Below, piece after piece: positions 1 through 9,245 of a stretch of DNA of 64,000 bases. Below the pieces are notes generated by a model. The model was given only the letters and a program-made list of their open reading frames with translations, did no database searches and had not been told where the DNA came from. This DNA is from Candidatus Marinacidobacterales bacterium. GTDB lineage: Bacteria > Acidobacteriota > Vicinamibacteria > Marinacidobacterales > DATDRI01. The DNA is taken from assembly GCA_965219415.1 (NCBI GenBank), contig CBDCNP010000002.1, forward strand, positions 4,032,001 to 4,096,000, given 5' to 3'. Numbering within the stretch: position 1 is the first letter of the stretch; every line of letters begins with the position of its first letter. Made by a program: the position numbers and the translations under genes.

Positions 1-2643
1 ATCGAGGAGCTCGCCGCGGCAAGGGGGACACCAGCTCGCCCAGAAGTTCAGCAACACTTTCCTTCCCTCGAGACTGGAAAGCCGGTGGGAGTTGCCGTCC
101 AGATCCCCCAACGTGAAATCAGGGGCAGGTAAAGGATCCAGAAGCCATGTTCCACGACGGGAGGGGGGTGCGGCTCTCTCGGCTTTCGGAACCGGTGTGG
201 CACGGGATGACTGGAAAGGCTCTCGTTTGAACTTCTCTTCCCCTTCGATCACGTATACCACGTGATTCGATGGGACGGACCGTAACGTTTGCACGAGCCC
301 GTTCGTCCACCGTATGACGACTTTCTCTAGCTTTCCCAAGCCTTCGAGGCCAAAGTGCAAAGACCGGCTACTTTGGGATAAGTAGCCGCTCGCCACGCGT
401 ACGGTCTTCTGTCGGACGCCGCCGCTCGCATGCACCTCGACGCGCGTGCCGATAGCATCACGGTTGCTCGAGCGACCCTCCAAGACGAACCTAACAGCGG
501 CCCGCCCGTTTGCCAGGTCGTTCCGCAGAAGCCGTAGCTGAGGCGCGTTTCGGTTTTTGAGTGCAACATCGATGTCACCATCCAGGTCATAGTCGAATGC
601 GACGAACGCTCGCCCGTCTTGGGGAAAGTCGAGCCCGCTGATACCTGAGGCGTCGATGAAGGTGCCATCACCGTTGTTCAAGTAGAAACGGTTCCGCTCG
701 TGTCCGCTCCAGCTTCCGTCGCCACGGATGAGTCGATCGATCGCGCTCCAGCTTCGCTCGTAAAGCTCCACCGCTTTCCTGTCAGGGGGTGAGCGCGACA
801 CGACCTGCCGCCAAAAGAAACTTCAAAGATCCTTCGTTGAGGCATTAGTAATGTAGCCGTTGACGGTATAGAGATCGTCATTCCCGTCGTTGTCGCAATC
901 GAAAAAATCGCTGCTCCAGGCCCATCGCCCGAACTCGACTCCTGCCTCCTCACCGACCTCTTCGAACCTTGCTCCCCCTAGGTTGCGAAAGAGACTGTTT
1001 CCCTTGGCGTGCCGCCGGTAGCTGGCCCGTGCCTCGCCGGCGTGGTAACCGCGCTGCGCGGTGAGGCGCAGACCGGCAGAGGACCACATGTTGCCTACAT
1101 AGAGATCGTCTTTGCCATCGAGATCGTAGTCCGTCCAGGCCACACTCATGCCGGCCCCGATGTCCTCCACCCCCGCCTCTCGGCTAATCTCGATGAAAGT
1201 GCCGCCAAGGTTCCGATACAGATTGTTACGGCCGAAATCGTTCGCCACATAAAGGTCTGGCCATCCGTCGTTGTCGAAATCGCCCCAAGACGAGGAAAGG
1301 CTGAAACGATCGTTGCCGGCCTCTAGACCCGAACCGGTGGTCACGTCTTCGAACGTTCCGTCACCCTCATTCCGGAAAAGGATATTTGGAGGTCCATTGG
1401 TGGCATCATGATACGGGTAAGGCAACGCCAGAGCGGTGTCCTCTCCGGGAGCGTCGACGTATCGGTAGCAGGTAACATAGAGGTCGAGGTCGCCGTCATT
1501 GTCATAGTCTGCCAGTGATGCCGAGCTGAGAGTCGCCTTGACTTCGTCTCTTCTCTCTAACGAAGCGCGAGACGGCTCGAATCTTCCTTGGCCGTCGTTC
1601 AAGAGAAGTACGACATTCCAGTTTTGGATGACGACAAGTAAGTCTTGATCGCCATCACTGTCGATGTCACCGAAGAGCCCCATCGAGGTTCGCTCCAGGA
1701 TGTCGATCCGCGAGGCCTGGCTGATGTCATCGAACGTCCCGTCACCCCGGTTGCGGTAGAGCCGGTTCGGGAGTCCCTGCGCCTGGGCCACGAAAAGATC
1801 CTCGAGTCCATCGTTATCCACATCCCCCACCGCAAGTCCACTGTGCCCGTAGAGATCAACCCCACTGGCGGCGTCCATTCCGGCGCGGAAGTAATCGATA
1901 CCCAGCCGCATCTGTCCCCAGTAGGAGGCTTCCTCGGCCCAGGCGATGCTGCTCACGTCGGTAAAGAAGGGCGCGGCCGAATGGCCGCCGGTGGCGGGTT
2001 CAGGCTTGAGGCGCTTCATTTTCCAGATGCCATCGGCAAGGACCCAGTCGAGTCGCCACCAACCTAAACGAGCAACGATCTCGTTCCGCGCCCCTCGCCC
2101 CACCAGGTCGTACAAGACACGAGTCCGTGCCTGGGCCGGAGCAGCACCTGAGGGAACTCCCACCTCGATGCTCACGATCTTGAACTTGAATGCAGAAAAG
2201 GAATTGAAATCTTGAACCCAAGACAAAAATTCCGAGGGCGCCAGGGCCGCTGCCACCGAAAGCTCATCCTCGTAGCGAAACCGGTAGAGTCGAACGCCGG
2301 GTGGTGCGCCCACCGGTTTGCTCGATACCGGCGTTAGAGACGCTCCCCGGAACTCCGCGTCGACCAGCGAGGCGATCGCTTCTGGGCGATGATCTTGTAA
2401 TGCCGCTTCGAGTAGGTGGAGTCTCTTGTCGAGTGCTTCTGTGACCGCCTCGGTCGCCCACCGGTCCTGTTCCGCATCCACCGCAACGAAGAGGGACTCG
2501 ACTGCAGAAGGCTTAGAGACGTAGCCCCGGAGTGGGAAGACCTGCTGGCCCTCTTCCGATTGTGGGGACCGTTCTGGAGCCAGCGCCGTACGTGGCAGGA
2601 GTAAGAGGGCCAGACATGCTAAACGAGGGAACGACTCGACCAT
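1..2643 (-). CDS. Exported FG-GAP/VCBS-repeat (CRTAC1-like) + ASPIC/UnbV + TlpA-type redoxin protein with in-frame UGA at 823-825 (probable selenocysteine); 3' end outside the window
   Basis: ORF 823..2643 has a signal peptide and DxDxDG FG-GAP repeats. Manual translation past the TGA stays open for 274 codons to the window edge: SFFWRQVV..ERNRFYLNNGDGTF..SNRDAIGTRV..SGYLSQSSRSLHFGL (ASPIC/UnbV)..APDFTL..LLNFWASWCPPC (redoxin). Confidence 0.85.
795..811 (-). promoter_or_regulatory. Putative bacterial SECIS hairpin
   Basis: GCGGCA-GGUCG-UGUCGC forms a 6-bp stem; the loop starts with GG 17 nt after the UGA. Confidence 0.6.
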
Positions 2644-2714
2644 GATGGAATCTCTTTGCTCCGACCCGAATAGTCGTCAACCAATCGACTCGGTCCGGAC
2701 CGAGTTGCGCTGCG

Positions 2715-4133
2715 TTATTCTTCGGTGGCGCTAGATCCGCCTAGGCGATCCCGGACCACGCGTCCGTCGCTGATGACCATTCTCATGCTCCGAATGTTCT
2801 GAATATCGCTGAGCGGGTTCTCGGCGACGATCAGGACATCCGCGAGCTTTCCTTTCTCGAGCGTGCCCAGCTTGTCGTCCAACCCCAGGATCTCCGCCGC
2901 GGTTTTTGTAGCGCAAGCGAGGACTCCTTCATCGGAGAAGCCGGCGTCCTTCAAGAACCCGAGCTCGGTGAAGTAGTCCGAGGGATACCGCTTCTCGTTC
3001 TCGAACGGGATATCGGTGGCGGCGCCAATCTTGATGCCGGCCTGCCTCGCCTTGCTAACCGCCTCCAAGCTCCGTTCGTGACTCACCTTGAAACGGCGAG
3101 ACCAGGTGTAGAAGAACCCGCCCGGAGGAATACCCGCGGTGGGATATCCGAGAACGGTTGGATTGTAGAAGGCGGTTATCGTGGGAACGAAACCGGTCCC
3201 GTTTTTCGCCATCGCTTGGATGGTGGTATCCGACATATCCAAAGGATGCTCGAGGCTGTCGAGCCCCGCTTCCGCGGCCCATACGATGTAGTCGCCGAAG
3301 GCGTCCGCCATCACAGGAATACCGTGCATGTGCGCCTCATCGATGGCTGCGGCGATTTCTTCTTTCGTGTACGGAGCGCCGATCTTGATCCAGTCGACGT
3401 GTCGGCGGATCTGCTCCCGGACGGCGAGTCGCCAATCCCACGGTCCGGTGGCCACGCGCACGTTGGGGCCTCCTCCGAGCTCGGAGGCACCACCCGCGCC
3501 CCGAGGTTTTCCGGAGGCCGTTCCGGTGAGCTCGTCGCCGTGCCCTGAGCGCGACGTAATGATCTTTCCGCTCCAGAACACTCGTGGACCATCCAGCATT
3601 TGCCGATCGACGGCTTCTTTGAGTTTGAACGCGACATCATTTCGTGTGCCGGCGTCGCGCACCGCGGTGATCCCGCCGTCTAATAGTTGGCCGAGCTTCA
3701 AGACCCCGCGAATGGTCGCCGCGGAGTCGGAGTCGGAGTACATGCCGAAGTCATCGCCGCGTTGCTGCGTGAAGTGGACGTGAAGATCGATGAGCCCCGG
3801 CACGATGTAGAGCCCGCTCGCATCCACGGTGCGGGCGGCGTTTGCCGGGACGCGGACGTTGCGCCCGACGTCCAAGATTCGGTCGCCTTGGATGACCAGC
3901 GTGGCGTTCGCGATGGGAGCCGCGCCGGTACCGTCGATAAGCGTGCCGCCCTTGACCACCAGGATGGGATCGTTGGATCGATCCCGCGGCGGGATCGGTA
4001 CTCGTCGGAGGTCATCGGTGGTGTCCAGCCCCTCGAGGCTCTGGGCACCATATTGTGCGGTGACGATTCCGACGCTGCCGAGCGTGACAGCGAGAATGGC
4101 CGCCAGGATTCGTGTCGATGAAGACCCTTTCAT
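2715..4133 (-). CDS. Exported metal-dependent amidohydrolase (imidazolonepropionase-like family)
   Basis: Signal peptide, PGLIDLHVH, SLEH, ATD, GTLEKGKLAD. Confidence 0.9.
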   Translation of the reverse strand: MKGSSSTRILAAILAVTLGSVGIVTAQYGAQSLEGLDTTDDLRRVPIPPRDRSNDPILVVKGGTLIDGTGAAPIANATLVIQGDRILDVGRNVRVPANAARTVDASGLYIVPGLIDLHVHFTQQRGDDFGMYSDSDSAATIRGVLKLGQLLDGGITAVRDAGTRNDVAFKLKEAVDRQMLDGPRVFWSGKIITSRSGHGDELTGTASGKPRGAGGASELGGGPNVRVATGPWDWRLAVREQIRRHVDWIKIGAPYTKEEIAAAIDEAHMHGIPVMADAFGDYIVWAAEAGLDSLEHPLDMSDTTIQAMAKNGTGFVPTITAFYNPTVLGYPTAGIPPGGFFYTWSRRFKVSHERSLEAVSKARQAGIKIGAATDIPFENEKRYPSDYFTELGFLKDAGFSDEGVLACATKTAAEILGLDDKLGTLEKGKLADVLIVAENPLSDIQNIRSMRMVISDGRVVRDRLGGSSATEE

Positions 4134-4315
4134 TTGGTCTGCTCCTTTCCCCGCATTCCGTGTCTGGGGGCGGCTATAGTGTCAAAGACAGATCTCGGTT
4201 GCAAGGTGCCTCCAAACCCAACTCTCACAGGGGGTTCGTCGTTTGACACCCCACGCCCGTTTCTGTATACAGTCGACCCGCCCACTCGGGAATCAATTTC
4301 AAAGGGGCTTATCCA

Positions 4316-5608
4316 ATGCAATCTTCTCTTAGGGTCTCAACCTTCGCGCTATCGGCCTTGGCGCTTGGCTTCGCACAGTGGAGCTGGGCACAGTCCGAAG
4401 AAACGATCGCCATCGTCGGTGGCAAGGTCATCGACGGTACTTCCGGGGCCTCTATCGCGAACGGCGTGGTGATCGTCGAGGGCAACACCATCCGTGCCGT
4501 CGGCTCTCGCTCCGACGTCTCGATTCCACCGGGGGCTCGCACTATCGATGCTAGTGGCAATAGCGTGCTTCCCGGGTTGACCGATCTTCACACTCACTCG
4601 GCCCACTACACGATCTCGGTGAACTGGGAGACCGACTCGATGGCGGCGCTCCGTGCTGCCGGAATCCTGCGGCAAGCACTCGACTCCGGGATCACCTTGG
4701 TGCGCGATGCCGGAGCTCGCAACTTGACGGCCATCGCCTTGAAGCGATCGATCGAGCAAGGCTACATCGAGGGTCCACGTTTCGTTATTTGCAACCAGAT
4801 CGTTAGCGCCACCGGCGGGCACGGCAGCGAAGGCGATCGGATGGAGAAGCCGAAGTGGGTCTTGGAGTCGGACTCGCCCTACGAGTGGAGAAAGAACATT
4901 CGCCAGAATTTCAAGATGGGCGCCGATTACGTCAAGGTGACCTTTCCGTTCACCGCGGAGGAGATCCAATTGGCCGCGGATGAGGCCCACAACTTCGGCG
5001 CTCTCATCGCGGTGGATGCCCTGGGTCCGCCGTACCCGGGCATGATGATGGTCGAGTGGGCGGTCCGTGCGGGTGCCGACACCATCGAGCATTTGCCGGG
5101 CATGAAGAACCAAGCCGAAGTGATCGCCTTGATGAAGGAGCAAGGGACGATTGTCGTACCGACGCTCCACGCGATGAGGCGGTTTGCGGGCGAGCGTTGG
5201 GACGCGCCGACCGAGAGGGAGGTTCGCAACCTGAGGCGACCCACGGACTACGAGGCTCGATTCCGCGCCATGCACGCCGCGGGCATCCCGATGGCGATCG
5301 GCACCGACACCGGAGGAAAGGATCAGGGAGAGATCGGTTTGTTCTACACCGAAGAGATCAAACGGTGGATGGGGTGGGGCTACTCCGCGGCGGAGATTAT
5401 CCAAGCCGCCACACGGATTGGAGCGGAAGCCGCGGGTTTGGATGATCACCTCGGAACACTCGAGGCGGGGAAGTGGGCGGACATTATTGTTGTCCCCGGC
5501 GACGCTCTCGAAGATCCCACCCGTTTGCCGCGACCCATACTAGTGATGAAAGACGGTGAAGTCGTTCGAGACCGAATGGAGACACGCGGCATGGGAGGAA
5601 CCCAATGA
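4316..5608 (+). CDS. Exported amidohydrolase family protein
   Basis: Signal peptide, PGLTDLHTH, TIEH, GTD, GTLEAGKWAD. Confidence 0.9.
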   Translation: MQSSLRVSTFALSALALGFAQWSWAQSEETIAIVGGKVIDGTSGASIANGVVIVEGNTIRAVGSRSDVSIPPGARTIDASGNSVLPGLTDLHTHSAHYTISVNWETDSMAALRAAGILRQALDSGITLVRDAGARNLTAIALKRSIEQGYIEGPRFVICNQIVSATGGHGSEGDRMEKPKWVLESDSPYEWRKNIRQNFKMGADYVKVTFPFTAEEIQLAADEAHNFGALIAVDALGPPYPGMMMVEWAVRAGADTIEHLPGMKNQAEVIALMKEQGTIVVPTLHAMRRFAGERWDAPTEREVRNLRRPTDYEARFRAMHAAGIPMAIGTDTGGKDQGEIGLFYTEEIKRWMGWGYSAAEIIQAATRIGAEAAGLDDHLGTLEAGKWADIIVVPGDALEDPTRLPRPILVMKDGEVVRDRMETRGMGGTQ

Positions 5609-7884
5609 ACGTACCGTCTTTGGTGGTAGGGGGGGTGGGCGCCGCTTTCGGCCTCGCCGTCCTGGCGTCGGTAGCCGCATCTCAAGAGCTCAAGGTCGAG
5701 CGCCTCGCCGCCTTGCCGAGCTTGATCGGAACCGCCCCGACGAAACCCGTTTGGTCTCCCGACAGCTCTCGTCTCGCGTTCCTCTGGAACGACGAAGCCA
5801 TGCCGTTTCGGGATGTCTGGGTCGTTGCCGCGGAAGGGGGTGAGCCGCGCCGGATTACCGACGTAGCGTCGCCGGCGCGCGGCGGGCCCGGTGCGGAACC
5901 GGGCTCACTCGCGGCCCTGGAACAGGAGTTCGCGGAACGTTCGCGCTCCGGTATTTCGGAAGTCGTGTGGACTCCGGATGGCCAGGCGCTGGTCGTCGCC
6001 TATGACGGGCATCTGTTCCGTGTGGGCGCCAATGGAGGCGAGGTCGAACGGCTCACCCGCAACTCCGGCGGACGTCACGCGATCGCCTTCTCGCCAGATG
6101 GCCGTTTTCTGTCGTTCTTACAAGGTGGCGATCTCTATCTGTGGCATCAAGAGACGGGAGAGTTGGTGCAGGCGACCGACGTCGGTGTGCCGCCACTCGG
6201 CCATCTTCCCGGCGCGTCTTTCTACCACCCCGACTCTGCCTTCATGGATTACCGGTGGTCGCCGGATAGCCGTCACATCGCCCTTCGCTACGAAGACCGC
6301 CGCAACGTGCGAAAAATGCCGTTCCCTGACTACCTGGGCGAGGAGACGCACGTCGAAACGCTGCGCCGGGACATCCCGGGCGAGAACGACTTGATGCGAA
6401 CGATGGTCGTTTTCTCCATTGCAAGTGGTCGTACGCGGACGGTCGAGCTTCCCGGTGCAACCGACCGACGTTTCAGTAGCTTCGGCTTTTCTCCCGACGG
6501 CTCTCACTTGCTGATCGATCAGTTCTCGGAGGACGGCGAGGATCGTTGGATTACCATCGCCGATGCCGCAGATGGCTCGGTACGGGTGCTGCGACACGAC
6601 CACAAGGCGAAGGGTGGGAACACCACGACCGCGTCTGCACTTTGGACCTCCGACTGGAGCTCGGACGGGCAGGCGGTGATCCTCGTTTCGGATGTCGACG
6701 GCTGGTTTCGCTTGTACTCGGGGCCCCTTGCCGGGGGACAAACCGAAAAGCTGACCAGCGGGGACTGGAGTGTGACTGGGGTCGCCTCCGAGGGGGCGAG
6801 TCTGACCGTCTCGCCGAAGACGAACGAGGTCTTCTTCATTGCCAGCAAGAAGAGTCCCTACGAGCGGCCGGTCTATCGCATGCCCGAAGGCGGCGGTACC
6901 GTAACTCAAGTTACGACGCTTCCCGGTTCCCATCTTCCTTTCGTATCCCCGGACGGGAAGTGGGTGGCCACGATTCGGTCGAGCGCGGTGAGCCCGCGCG
7001 AGCTTTATCTGGTGGGCTCGCAAGGGGGCACGGAGACGCGAGTGACGCACTCGCCCCCCGAGGAGTTCTCGAAGTACTCGTGGGTCGAGCCTCGCTACGT
7101 GACGTTCAAGAGCCGCACCGACGGCGCCACCCTCCACGGGCGGCTTCTCGAGCCGCCGAACCTCGATCGATCGAAGCGTCACGCCGCGGTCCTCGGGCCG
7201 GTGTACTCGAACACCGTTCGCGAGCAATGGGTCACTCCGTTCGATACGTTCCAACAGTACCAAGCGCTCTCGCGTGGCTACCTCGTTCTGCTCGTCGACA
7301 TTCGCGGCAGCGTCGGCTATGGCCGCGAGTTCCGGAGTCAGTTCGTCGAGAACGTGGGCGAGATCGACATCGAAGATCTGCATAGCGGCGTCGAGTACTT
7401 GGAGACGCTTACCTACGTGGATCCCGATCGCATCGGGCTCTGGGGATGGAGCTACGGGGGCCTTCTCGCCGCGATGTCGCTCTTCAAGAAACCGGGGGTC
7501 TACCAGGCGGGTGTGGCCGGTGCCCCAGCCACCAACGTTTGGCACGCCACGAGCGGAGAAGTGGATCTGTTCTTCCGTCCCAGCGCGCGGCCCGATCTTT
7601 ATCGCAAGGGCTCGGCCTTCCTGCACGCCGACGGCCTCCAGGATCCGCTGATGATCATCCACGGAATGCAGGACACCATCTGCTTGTTCAGGGACTCGAT
7701 CCACCTGGCCGAAAAACTCATGTTGTTGGGTAAGGACTTCGATTTCGTTCCTTTGCCGACGTCGGTTCACGGCGATGCACGGACTAAGGACTTTATCGGG
7801 ACCCACGTACTTAGGAAAATCGATCAGCACTTCGAGCGGCACTTGGGCTCTGGCCCGACGCGGTCAGGACAAGGCACTCAATAA
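5605..7884 (+). CDS. S9 family (DPP IV-like) peptidase
   Basis: WSPD propeller repeats, GWSYGG nucleophile, HGMQD; ATGA overlap with the upstream gene. Confidence 0.92.
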   Translation: MNVPSLVVGGVGAAFGLAVLASVAASQELKVERLAALPSLIGTAPTKPVWSPDSSRLAFLWNDEAMPFRDVWVVAAEGGEPRRITDVASPARGGPGAEPGSLAALEQEFAERSRSGISEVVWTPDGQALVVAYDGHLFRVGANGGEVERLTRNSGGRHAIAFSPDGRFLSFLQGGDLYLWHQETGELVQATDVGVPPLGHLPGASFYHPDSAFMDYRWSPDSRHIALRYEDRRNVRKMPFPDYLGEETHVETLRRDIPGENDLMRTMVVFSIASGRTRTVELPGATDRRFSSFGFSPDGSHLLIDQFSEDGEDRWITIADAADGSVRVLRHDHKAKGGNTTTASALWTSDWSSDGQAVILVSDVDGWFRLYSGPLAGGQTEKLTSGDWSVTGVASEGASLTVSPKTNEVFFIASKKSPYERPVYRMPEGGGTVTQVTTLPGSHLPFVSPDGKWVATIRSSAVSPRELYLVGSQGGTETRVTHSPPEEFSKYSWVEPRYVTFKSRTDGATLHGRLLEPPNLDRSKRHAAVLGPVYSNTVREQWVTPFDTFQQYQALSRGYLVLLVDIRGSVGYGREFRSQFVENVGEIDIEDLHSGVEYLETLTYVDPDRIGLWGWSYGGLLAAMSLFKKPGVYQAGVAGAPATNVWHATSGEVDLFFRPSARPDLYRKGSAFLHADGLQDPLMIIHGMQDTICLFRDSIHLAEKLMLLGKDFDFVPLPTSVHGDARTKDFIGTHVLRKIDQHFERHLGSGPTRSGQGTQ

Positions 7885-7895
7885 GGAGAATTCGC

Positions 7896-9245
7896 ATGTG
7901 GAGAAGAAACTTTTTGAAGCTTTTAGGGCTCGGCGGATCGGCGAGTGTACTTTCCGGGTTCAAGACACATTCGGCCGCTCCATCGGAGACATCGGTGGGA
8001 GCCGACGTGACAGTGGGCCCCCTCGACCTGGCGGAGATGGAGATCGTCGACGTTCATGTTCATCCCCCCAACCCCATCACCCTCGAACAGAACTACGACC
8101 AGTGGAACGGCTCGTTCGTCGACGCACTACTCCCGGCCTATGAATACGAGCACAAGGAAGAGCTCCGGCAAAAGCTCTCCGGGGTCTTCGAAGAACACCT
8201 CTACAACATGCCTCGCCAGACCGGCTACTACAACTACGTCTCTCGGGTGTACGGGGTGGAGCCCAATCTCGCAGGGTTCGATTCGGTGGTGAAGAAGGGA
8301 ATCGAAAGCGGCTTCACCGACTACGTCCGTTCGATCTTGGATCGCGAGAAGGTAAGCTCGATACTGCTTCAATCGCGGAGCTCGGAACCGAAGCGGCCGG
8401 AGACGTACGTGCCGGCGGGCCGCTTCGTATGGAGCTACTCCTTCAACGATCTCATCGACCCCGGCTTCGCCAAGAAGAACTCGGCGGAGGCCGTCGAAGA
8501 CGTCGTCAAGGCGGTGGACGAGGTTCTCGAATCTTGTGCCGCGGACGGTTGCGTCGGTCTAAAAACCTCGATGGCCTACTTTCGACCGTTAACCGTTGAG
8601 AAGGTCGAGCGGGATCAAGCCAACCTAGATCTGAAGACCGTCCTGACCAACGAGCCATCGGCGCTCACTCCCCGAGGGACCCCCCTCTACGACGATCCAG
8701 AGCTCACCCGTGCGCTTCACTCCTATCAGGACTATCTGCTCCGCCACATATTCGTCAAGGCGGGCGAGCTCGACATGCGCGTGATCATCCACACCGCGGT
8801 GGGGTTGCATCCAGCTCTCCGGTTCGATTGGAACAGTCCACTGGGACTCTACAAGTCCTTCCAGGATGACGAGGTCAAACGGGTCGAGACTCAGTTCGTT
8901 CTCATCCACACCGGGTATCCCTTGCACCACAACGTCGCCGCGTTCATTAGCCAGTTTCCGAACGTCCACTGCGACGTTTCGTTCTACGCCAAGTTCCCTG
9001 GAGCTCTCGAGGAAACGCTGCGGGCGTTCCTCGCCCTCGCGCCGTCCGAGCAGACCATGCACGGCAGCGACGCCAACAACATTCCAGAGGAGATCGGTTA
9101 CTGTGCCGACAACTTCCGTCGGGTGTTGGCTAAGGTCCTGAACGACTATCGCTCGCACTACGGTTGGACCGACAAAGACTGCGAAAAAATCGCCCGCAAC
9201 GTGATGAGTGAGAACGCGAAGCGGATTTACAAGATCAACACATAA
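7896..9245 (+). CDS. Tat-exported amidohydrolase_2 family protein
   Basis: MWRRNFLK twin-arginine signal, VDVHVH, IHTG, HGSD. Confidence 0.85.
   Translation: MWRRNFLKLLGLGGSASVLSGFKTHSAAPSETSVGADVTVGPLDLAEMEIVDVHVHPPNPITLEQNYDQWNGSFVDALLPAYEYEHKEELRQKLSGVFEEHLYNMPRQTGYYNYVSRVYGVEPNLAGFDSVVKKGIESGFTDYVRSILDREKVSSILLQSRSSEPKRPETYVPAGRFVWSYSFNDLIDPGFAKKNSAEAVEDVVKAVDEVLESCAADGCVGLKTSMAYFRPLTVEKVERDQANLDLKTVLTNEPSALTPRGTPLYDDPELTRALHSYQDYLLRHIFVKAGELDMRVIIHTAVGLHPALRFDWNSPLGLYKSFQDDEVKRVETQFVLIHTGYPLHHNVAAFISQFPNVHCDVSFYAKFPGALEETLRAFLALAPSEQTMHGSDANNIPEEIGYCADNFRRVLAKVLNDYRSHYGWTDKDCEKIARNVMSENAKRIYKINT

Follow-up and report, generated by a model that had tools for sequence, protein, structure and literature searches.

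Selenoprotein catalogues are filled mostly with small proteins of the thioredoxin fold that have Cys homologs, the extracytoplasmic reductases TlpA and ResA are re-reduced through a DsbD/CcdA-type route, and for the bacterial CRTAC1/UnbV family of propeller proteins we know of no function. Here, we describe a gene found at the beginning of a 64,000-nucleotide stretch of DNA from Candidatus Marinacidobacterales bacterium (phylum Acidobacteriota; GenBank assembly GCA_965219415.1, contig CBDCNP010000002.1, positions 4,032,001 to 4,096,000; this whole stretch is called the window), in which an in-frame UGA codon at positions 823 to 825 is, judging from comparative sequence analysis, very probably decoded as selenocysteine (Sec). 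The gene would then be a single one that is not truncated, and with high probability it encodes an exported protein of 1221 residues, the UGA being decoded by SelB and tRNA-Sec under the direction of a hairpin. Table 1 of a 2026 review (PMC13188914) comprises 119 prokaryotic selenoprotein families and subfamilies and holds no FG-GAP, UnbV/ASPIC, CRTAC1, or propeller entry, the nearest by name being "UGC-containing TlpA" and "Redoxin family", in which Sec is placed inside the redoxin motif. As far as their main texts go, the terms FG-GAP, ASPIC, UnbV, CRTAC1, and propeller are also absent from PMC12013277 (deep-Sep), PMC13188914, and PMC13326102 (BSepDB). Furthermore, release 20 of NCBIfam has no model for a propeller selenoprotein, and full-text literature searches retrieved no FG-GAP, UnbV, CRTAC1, VCBS, or propeller selenoprotein, the CRTAC1 structure papers offering no functional lead. 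An earlier first-pass annotation of this DNA, made from the sequence alone, had placed the protein outside the classic selenoprotein families, and indeed no counterpart was found in the 119-family table or in NCBIfam. On the evidence of its conservation, we consider it a real, conserved selenoprotein gene, and it is a member of a widespread family that is missing from the catalogues consulted.

The listing of open reading frames (ORFs) for the window contains a 606-residue ORF on the minus strand (positions 823 to 2643), which closes at the TGA of 823 to 825. When this TGA is read through, 274 further codons remain open, reaching base 1 of the window, and the flanking DNA beyond the window edge adds another 340 open codons (1020 nt), which gives a total product of 1221 residues; the second TGA, which ends this frame, was taken as a real stop. 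The whole coding sequence corresponds to G000:C3:4030981-4034643 (L024:2981-6643; minus strand, as are all features of the gene given below), and its window part (positions 1 to 2643) encodes residues 1 to 881. Approximately the first 22 residues (MVESFPRLACLALLLLPRTALA; positions 2578 to 2643) resemble a Sec-type signal peptide, so export is predicted from the pattern of the translated sequence. An FG-GAP/VCBS beta-propeller spanning residues 260 to 700 or so (positions 544 to 1866) was recognized by Pfam, by an AlphaFold2 (AF2) model, and by Foldseek, and it encloses the TGA (residue U607); within the window part, Pfam FG-GAP_3 scored 152.5 bits in six stretches that flank the TGA on both sides. 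It is followed by a UnbV/ASPIC domain (residues 730 to 795, positions 259 to 456; Pfam PF07593, 57.9 bits vs. a cut-off of 23.4) and by the start of a TlpA/ResA-like redoxin domain (residues 839 to 881 within the window, positions 1 to 129), for which Pfam gave Redoxin with 39.9 bits (residues 839 to 879) and AhpC-TSA with 39.6 bits, and which carries the motif WCPPC (CPPC at positions 19 to 30, its two Cys being C872 and C875). Redoxin, FG-GAP_3, and UnbV_ASPIC all exceeded their own Pfam cut-offs. Outside the window, the gene encodes the remainder of the redoxin domain and then a TPR domain, as indicated by NCBIfam and by PDB sequence searches, in which the product matched ResA/TlpA and TPR proteins. 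Both coding conservation and Pfam domains are therefore present on the two sides of the UGA, as expected of a selenoprotein gene. The first-pass annotation had described the ORF with its mid-propeller TGA, the 274 open codons beyond it, and the downstream FG-GAP repeats, ASPIC/UnbV domain, and CPPC redoxin; the ORF listing, the translation, and Pfam bore out each of these.

The TGA recurs at the same place in related genes. With the 367 residues surrounding the site as the query, the genome yielded a paralog on another contig (L026, G000:C2:204655-208713; ORF 793-3615, minus strand, 940 residues) that is 40% identical and carries TGA at the identical aligned codon (KDT-U-SLFWRHVV vs. KDL-U-SFFWRQVV in the window protein); it has a C-terminal redoxin domain with WCVPC and is devoid of TPR. 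The same 367-residue query, compared with 401 genomes of the phylum at E ≤ 1e-30, matched 110 of them. Among the 148 matches listed, 79 contained exactly one in-frame TGA, 69 had no stop, and none had TAA or TAG. Seventy-one loci were retrieved (48 of the 79 TGA rows and 23 stop-free rows, including L062 and L083 from unpublished genomes, which were counted here and left out of alignments and trees), the site being located by pairwise alignment to the window protein. The aligned codon was TGA in all 48 TGA loci (48/71 overall), and the 23 stop-free loci had Ser, Asn, Gly, Asp, Ala, Glu, or Tyr at this place and Cys in no case (0/23).

To look across phyla, one genome per species was scanned with a degenerate nucleotide pattern (in the code of the International Union of Pure and Applied Chemistry, IUPAC) that consisted of TGA and the next eight codons. 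At least 116 stretches matched it, and 80 loci, holding 81 matches, were examined. All 81 were an in-frame TGA inside a propeller homolog (E from 1e-13 to 1e-195), both flanks of which lay in a long open frame wherever the extent of the contig allowed. The loci came from Planctomycetota (29), Acidobacteriota (25), Verrucomicrobiota (21), Candidatus Latescibacterota (2), and Bacteroidota (1), with 2 from other records; since the pattern itself required TGA, this set shows the breadth of the family and not its frequency. Altogether, 60 of the 401 sampled genomes of the phylum carry the TGA form, and TGA forms are known from at least five phyla. The tabulation of the aligned codon that had been proposed with the first-pass annotation, with TGA, Cys, and Ser in mind, thus came out clearly for TGA (48/71 loci and 81/81 pattern matches) and went against Cys, which was seen only once, in P0127, a form known as a database protein only and having the motif CAPC.

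Downstream of the UGA lies a SECIS-like hairpin (positions 795 to 811), in which nucleotides 15 to 20, counted from the U of UGA, pair with nucleotides 26 to 31 to form a 6-bp stem closed by the loop GGUCG (positions 801 to 805). The stem begins 11 nt and the loop 17 nt past the UGA; the 6-bp stem and loop described previously were reproduced by folding, and the distance of 17 nt quoted for the hairpin is that to the loop. The element GCAGGUC, noted earlier as common to this hairpin and to fdhF, does occur in fdhF of E. coli K-12 at nt 19 to 25 from the U of UGA, and here at nt 18 to 24. The weight we give to the hairpin comes from its covariation across homologs. In an ungapped alignment of 42 nt of TGA forms, a set of 35 distinct rows from the phylum (nine divergent rows, L108-L116, and L062 being left out) had 92.4% of cells in standard pairs, and its covariation score was reached by 0 of 500 shuffles. 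In these rows, the pair 18-28 was CG in 20, GU in 5, UA in 5, AU in 2, GC in 2, and unpaired in 1. Column 18 is the wobble base of an Arg codon and column 28 is the first codon base of the ninth residue after Sec, which is Ser, Ala, Thr, or Pro, and the two columns covary across that amino-acid change. The set from other phyla, in which columns 27 to 31 are free of the search pattern, behaved similarly: 95.8% of cells in its 80 rows were paired, the covariation score was again reached by none of 500 shuffles, and the pair 18-28 was GU in 30 rows, AU in 18, CG in 13, GC in 13, UA in 2, and unpaired in 4. By contrast, in the non-TGA control (19 rows, with the unpublished L083 and the divergent L121-L123 left out) the helix was paired in 57% of cells, which is the shuffle level (275/500), and the pair 18-28 was unpaired in 13 of the 19. 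Hence, hairpin conservation, another check suggested beforehand, was found as compensatory change in TGA forms and not in non-TGA homologs, and the element combines a position 3' of the UGA, a G in the loop, and paired substitutions, as a bacterial SECIS stem-loop should. A divergent subfamily (L109, L114, L115, and L116 from genomes G093, G015, G393, and G054, respectively) has the sequence PDG-U-[TSR]-C-[LV]-W and no redoxin domain. Its members possess a 7-bp hairpin of their own, located a few bases farther from the UGA, with a CGUGNC loop and paired changes between members.

The genome (about 8.05 Mb in 3 contigs, 96% complete, 8% contamination) provides the machinery for Sec insertion, with matches to selA (570 bits), selB (376 bits), and selD (328 bits) and a tRNA-Sec of 69.7 bits, which is above the Rfam threshold. 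Its selD (L001, G000:C3:3888155-3892087, match 1501-2433) itself contains an in-frame TGA (...TCAG-U-ASKL...) and is a Sec-type SelD; hairpins follow the UGA of this gene, no single one of which could be chosen with confidence. In the phylum, selA (E ≤ 1e-40) was detected in 301 of the 401 genomes, and because the phylum is so rich in Sec users, a test for selA in carriers of the TGA form is not very discriminating. Fifty-six of the 60 carriers have selA, and the remaining four (G230, G081, G318, and G255, 69-99% complete), in which selA was not found, have selB above the cut-off. The sel genes, the presence of which had been named as a check in the first-pass annotation, are therefore all there in this genome together with tRNA-Sec, and each of the 60 carriers has selA or selB. 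As separate observations, selA is found about 1-5 kb downstream of the TGA-bearing gene in two genomes of one genus (G021:C1:1154715-1158321 and G175:C9:31842-38751), and G081:C6:15269-16447 contains a translation-GTPase match with one in-frame TGA that, at 193.7 bits, falls short of the cut-off of the selB model.

The structure of residues 236 to 990 was predicted with AF2 from an alignment of 65 sequences that combined 12 Sec forms of several phyla with 53 non-Sec relatives, and the resulting model had a mean predicted local distance difference test score (pLDDT) of 87.6 and a predicted template modeling score of 0.87. According to DSSP, U607 (model residue 372) opens a helix at model residues 372 to 380 (U-S-F-F-W-R-Q-V-V) in a block with a pLDDT of 89. 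Thiol oxidoreductases usually have their reactive Cys or Sec at a helix N-terminus. The top Foldseek match of the model was murine CRTAC1 (9etn_A; E 5.2e-27, TM-score 0.70 on the target, 586 aligned columns), and its last domain matched structures of ResA, TlpA, StoA, and Etrx.

As to the redoxin domain, it is encoded in frame by 43 of the phylum's 48 TGA forms, and its CxxC motif is intact in every one of these 43; among the 5 without this domain, four have U-[TSR]-C, i.e., a Cys two residues past Sec. Sixteen of the 23 non-TGA forms of the phylum have a redoxin domain, the CxxC being kept in 4 and the first or both Cys being lost in 12. Among full-length homologs in the databases, the best 120 for the window protein include 3 that keep CxxC; none of the 120 exceeds 57% identity to it, which fits with gene callers having split the closer relatives at the TGA. 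A search with the paralog gave 119 database matches, of which 80 were N-terminal ORFs ending exactly at the site and named "hypothetical", "FG-GAP-like repeat-containing", or "VCBS repeat-containing" protein; two of its full-length matches, which also include the Cys form P0127, have Val or Ala at the site and keep CxxC. Those of about 800 residues, with Ser, Glu, or Arg, have no redoxin domain. It seems possible that lineages losing Sec take Ser, Ala, or Gly, and that the partner CxxC then mostly decays or is lost with its domain. Since relatives share states, the coupling between the two sites was tested against a phylogeny built with FastTree from the propeller part, the column of the site being masked. 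The tree of 226 rows with a redoxin domain had 5 changes at the site, and independent pairs differed in the same direction in 1 of 5 and showed no difference in 4 of 5. When a missing redoxin domain was counted as CxxC loss, a 255-row tree had 9 site changes and 15 CxxC changes, with 7 independent pairs on supported branches; averaged over 200 random pairings, 4.0 pairs differed in the same direction, 0.1 in the opposite one, and 2.9 not at all (sign test, about 0.125).

These data suggest the following scheme. The small hairpin starting 11 nt past the UGA would direct its decoding as Sec, and the selenol placed at the helix N-terminus on the propeller would be the reactive center of an extracytoplasmic redox enzyme. 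It might react with an oxidant or a substrate to yield a selenenic acid or a selenenyl-sulfide, and the oxidized Sec would be resolved by a thiol, which in most members would belong to the fused TlpA-like CxxC redoxin and in the U-x-C subfamily, which has no redoxin domain, to the Cys two residues downstream. The redoxin CxxC would in turn be re-reduced from the membrane, presumably via a DsbD/CcdA-type route. We regard this cycle, in which a selenol is resolved by a fused redoxin or a neighboring Cys, as plausible, though we advance it tentatively. Of the earlier proposal of an exported Sec-containing propeller with its own fused reductase, the Sec part has held up, and the redoxin as the reductase of Sec is still something that we infer.

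Other explanations of the TGA were considered. It could be a true stop between two genes, the downstream part being translated from a nearby GTG and the hairpin having another role or none. The 606-residue product is in fact on record as a protein in NCBI and ENA, just as the paralog is recorded as a 567-residue N-terminal fragment (P0146); 80 homologous N-terminal ORFs end at the site, and in-frame GTG codons follow the TGA (ORF 1 to 801). However, the interrupting stop was TGA in 79 of 79 matches and never TAA or TAG, homologs without TGA run uninterrupted across the site, the covariation of the hairpin is confined to the TGA-bearing forms, and, if the AF2 model is right, the break would hit the start of a helix within a single, confidently folded propeller domain. 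We therefore consider two separate genes very improbable. A pseudogene or an assembly or sequencing error, i.e., a point mutation in an ordinary CRTAC1-family gene, has next to no probability in our view, even though the nonsense codon stands alone in an otherwise intact frame, because a matching TGA is present in the 40% identical paralog and in homologs from five phyla, and the downstream coding sequence is fully conserved. Public metagenome contigs from 4 runs of 4 studies also had no alternative letter at 823 to 825, an agreement that lends the TGA weak support, but no public contig spans the codon with at least 31 letters on each side, as they break at 788 to 835, which speaks for an error and to some degree against Sec. 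This same stretch, which contains the UGA and the hairpin, was observed to rise in summed metagenome depth from about 3-10 to 140-300 in contigs of the 4 studies, and a word of about 38 nt from it is common to many other contigs, presumably those of further family members.

A third explanation dispenses with selenium: the UGA might be read as a standard amino acid (e.g., Trp, Cys, or Arg), or termination might be regulated so that a short and a long isoform are made. The tolerance of Ser, Ala, Gly, Asn, Glu, Asp, and Tyr at the site in non-TGA homologs, which means that the fold does not require any one chemistry, would agree with this. Yet all 60 carrier genomes have selA or selB, the hairpin shares the spacing and the GGUC loop of fdhF, and the codon is invariably TGA, which makes selenium-free read-through unlikely to a high degree. 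SelB-dependent insertion of Sec, as far as sequences can indicate it, is supported by every indirect line examined.

Several other results weigh against Sec insertion or against the proposed redox cycle. The hairpin folds with -8.9 kcal/mol (z-score, +0.55), and among 200 shuffled sequences 140 fold equally well or better; as shuffles match it, the stability of the single sequence was set aside as evidence. A scan of window positions 700 to 900 with Rfam found no SECIS family, giving just two chance-level matches. In the best 120 full-length homologs, the site is Ser in 65, Ala in 34, Gly in 10, Asn in 9, Glu in 2, and Cys in none, and of about 150 non-TGA homologs a single one has Cys. The exchange of Sec for Cys that usually marks selenoproteins is therefore seen here at most marginally. 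An intact CxxC is missing from some Sec forms, with CPVS in L155, STDS in L185, SQDN in L200, and no motif at all in L196 and L108; forms with a degenerate or missing CxxC include several from Verrucomicrobiota. The coupling of Sec and CxxC seems to reflect largely one old joint loss, and, as the tests that take the tree into account were not significant, it is no more than suggestive. Finally, no DsbD/CcdA gene was found among the neighbors in the window or by clustering of the loci.

The gene is surrounded (window positions 2715 to 9245 and L024 468-2910) by genes for four amidohydrolases and an S9/DPP-IV peptidase and by a DUF885 fragment, and the region looks like a peptide- or amide-degradation cluster. 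Clustering of the ORFs of 116 loci revealed no conserved neighbor, yielding the two halves of the gene itself and overlapping antisense frames.

If Sec is indeed inserted, we would tentatively see here a large, widespread selenoenzyme family, exported and with a CRTAC1-like propeller instead of a thioredoxin fold as its scaffold, in which selenium is not interchangeable with sulfur and performs chemistry beyond the reach of Cys. With 940 to 1400 residues, predicted export, and a propeller fold, its members are unlike the norm of the catalogues, and they are common among the Acidobacteriota, Planctomycetota, and Verrucomicrobiota of soil and marine habitats. Since gene callers systematically split the gene, selenium use in these phyla is probably undercounted and thousands of database entries would be truncated. 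In the bacterial CRTAC1/UnbV family, the position of Sec is a candidate for the active site, which, if true, would be the first catalytic site there, and the family would be among the very few selenoprotein families that are nearly devoid of Cys forms, offering a natural test of why Sec persists where Cys almost never occurs. As the element is short and fdhF-like, read-through is open to direct testing with a reporter.

When compared with described systems, the protein resembles three of them in different parts. With the CRTAC1/ASPIC-UnbV family, as represented by murine CRTAC1 (PDB 9ETN), it has in common the FG-GAP_3 and UnbV_ASPIC domains and the propeller fold, and with both domains above the Pfam cut-offs and the propeller predicted it belongs to this family, whose non-Sec relatives bear the NCBI name "CRTAC1 family protein". 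Its identity to CRTAC1 is, however, 20%, and it adds the propeller Sec, a fused redoxin, TPR, and a bacterial signal peptide. To the TlpA/ResA-type extracytoplasmic thiol-disulfide reductases it is similar in its C-terminal domain, where W-C-x-x-C is kept, and the relation is at the domain level only, the NCBIfam equivalog cut-offs being missed for NF047696 (63.1 vs. 230), NF002854 (ResA; 79.5 vs. 170), and NF041054 (75.3 vs. 300). Unlike in the catalogued selenoprotein forms "UGC-containing TlpA family" and NF041054 (WAxxUGC_long), Sec is located in the propeller, 265 residues before the redoxin motif. The stem of the fdhF element carries a bulged U, whereas the one described here is a short, perfect 6-bp helix. 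Although the protein is unrelated to formate dehydrogenase, its gene is like E. coli fdhF in having an in-frame UGA with a stem-loop directly after it and the loop GGUC at nearly the same place (nt 21 to 24 here, nt 22 to 25 in fdhF), and both would depend on selA, selB, selC, and selD, all of which are present in this genome.

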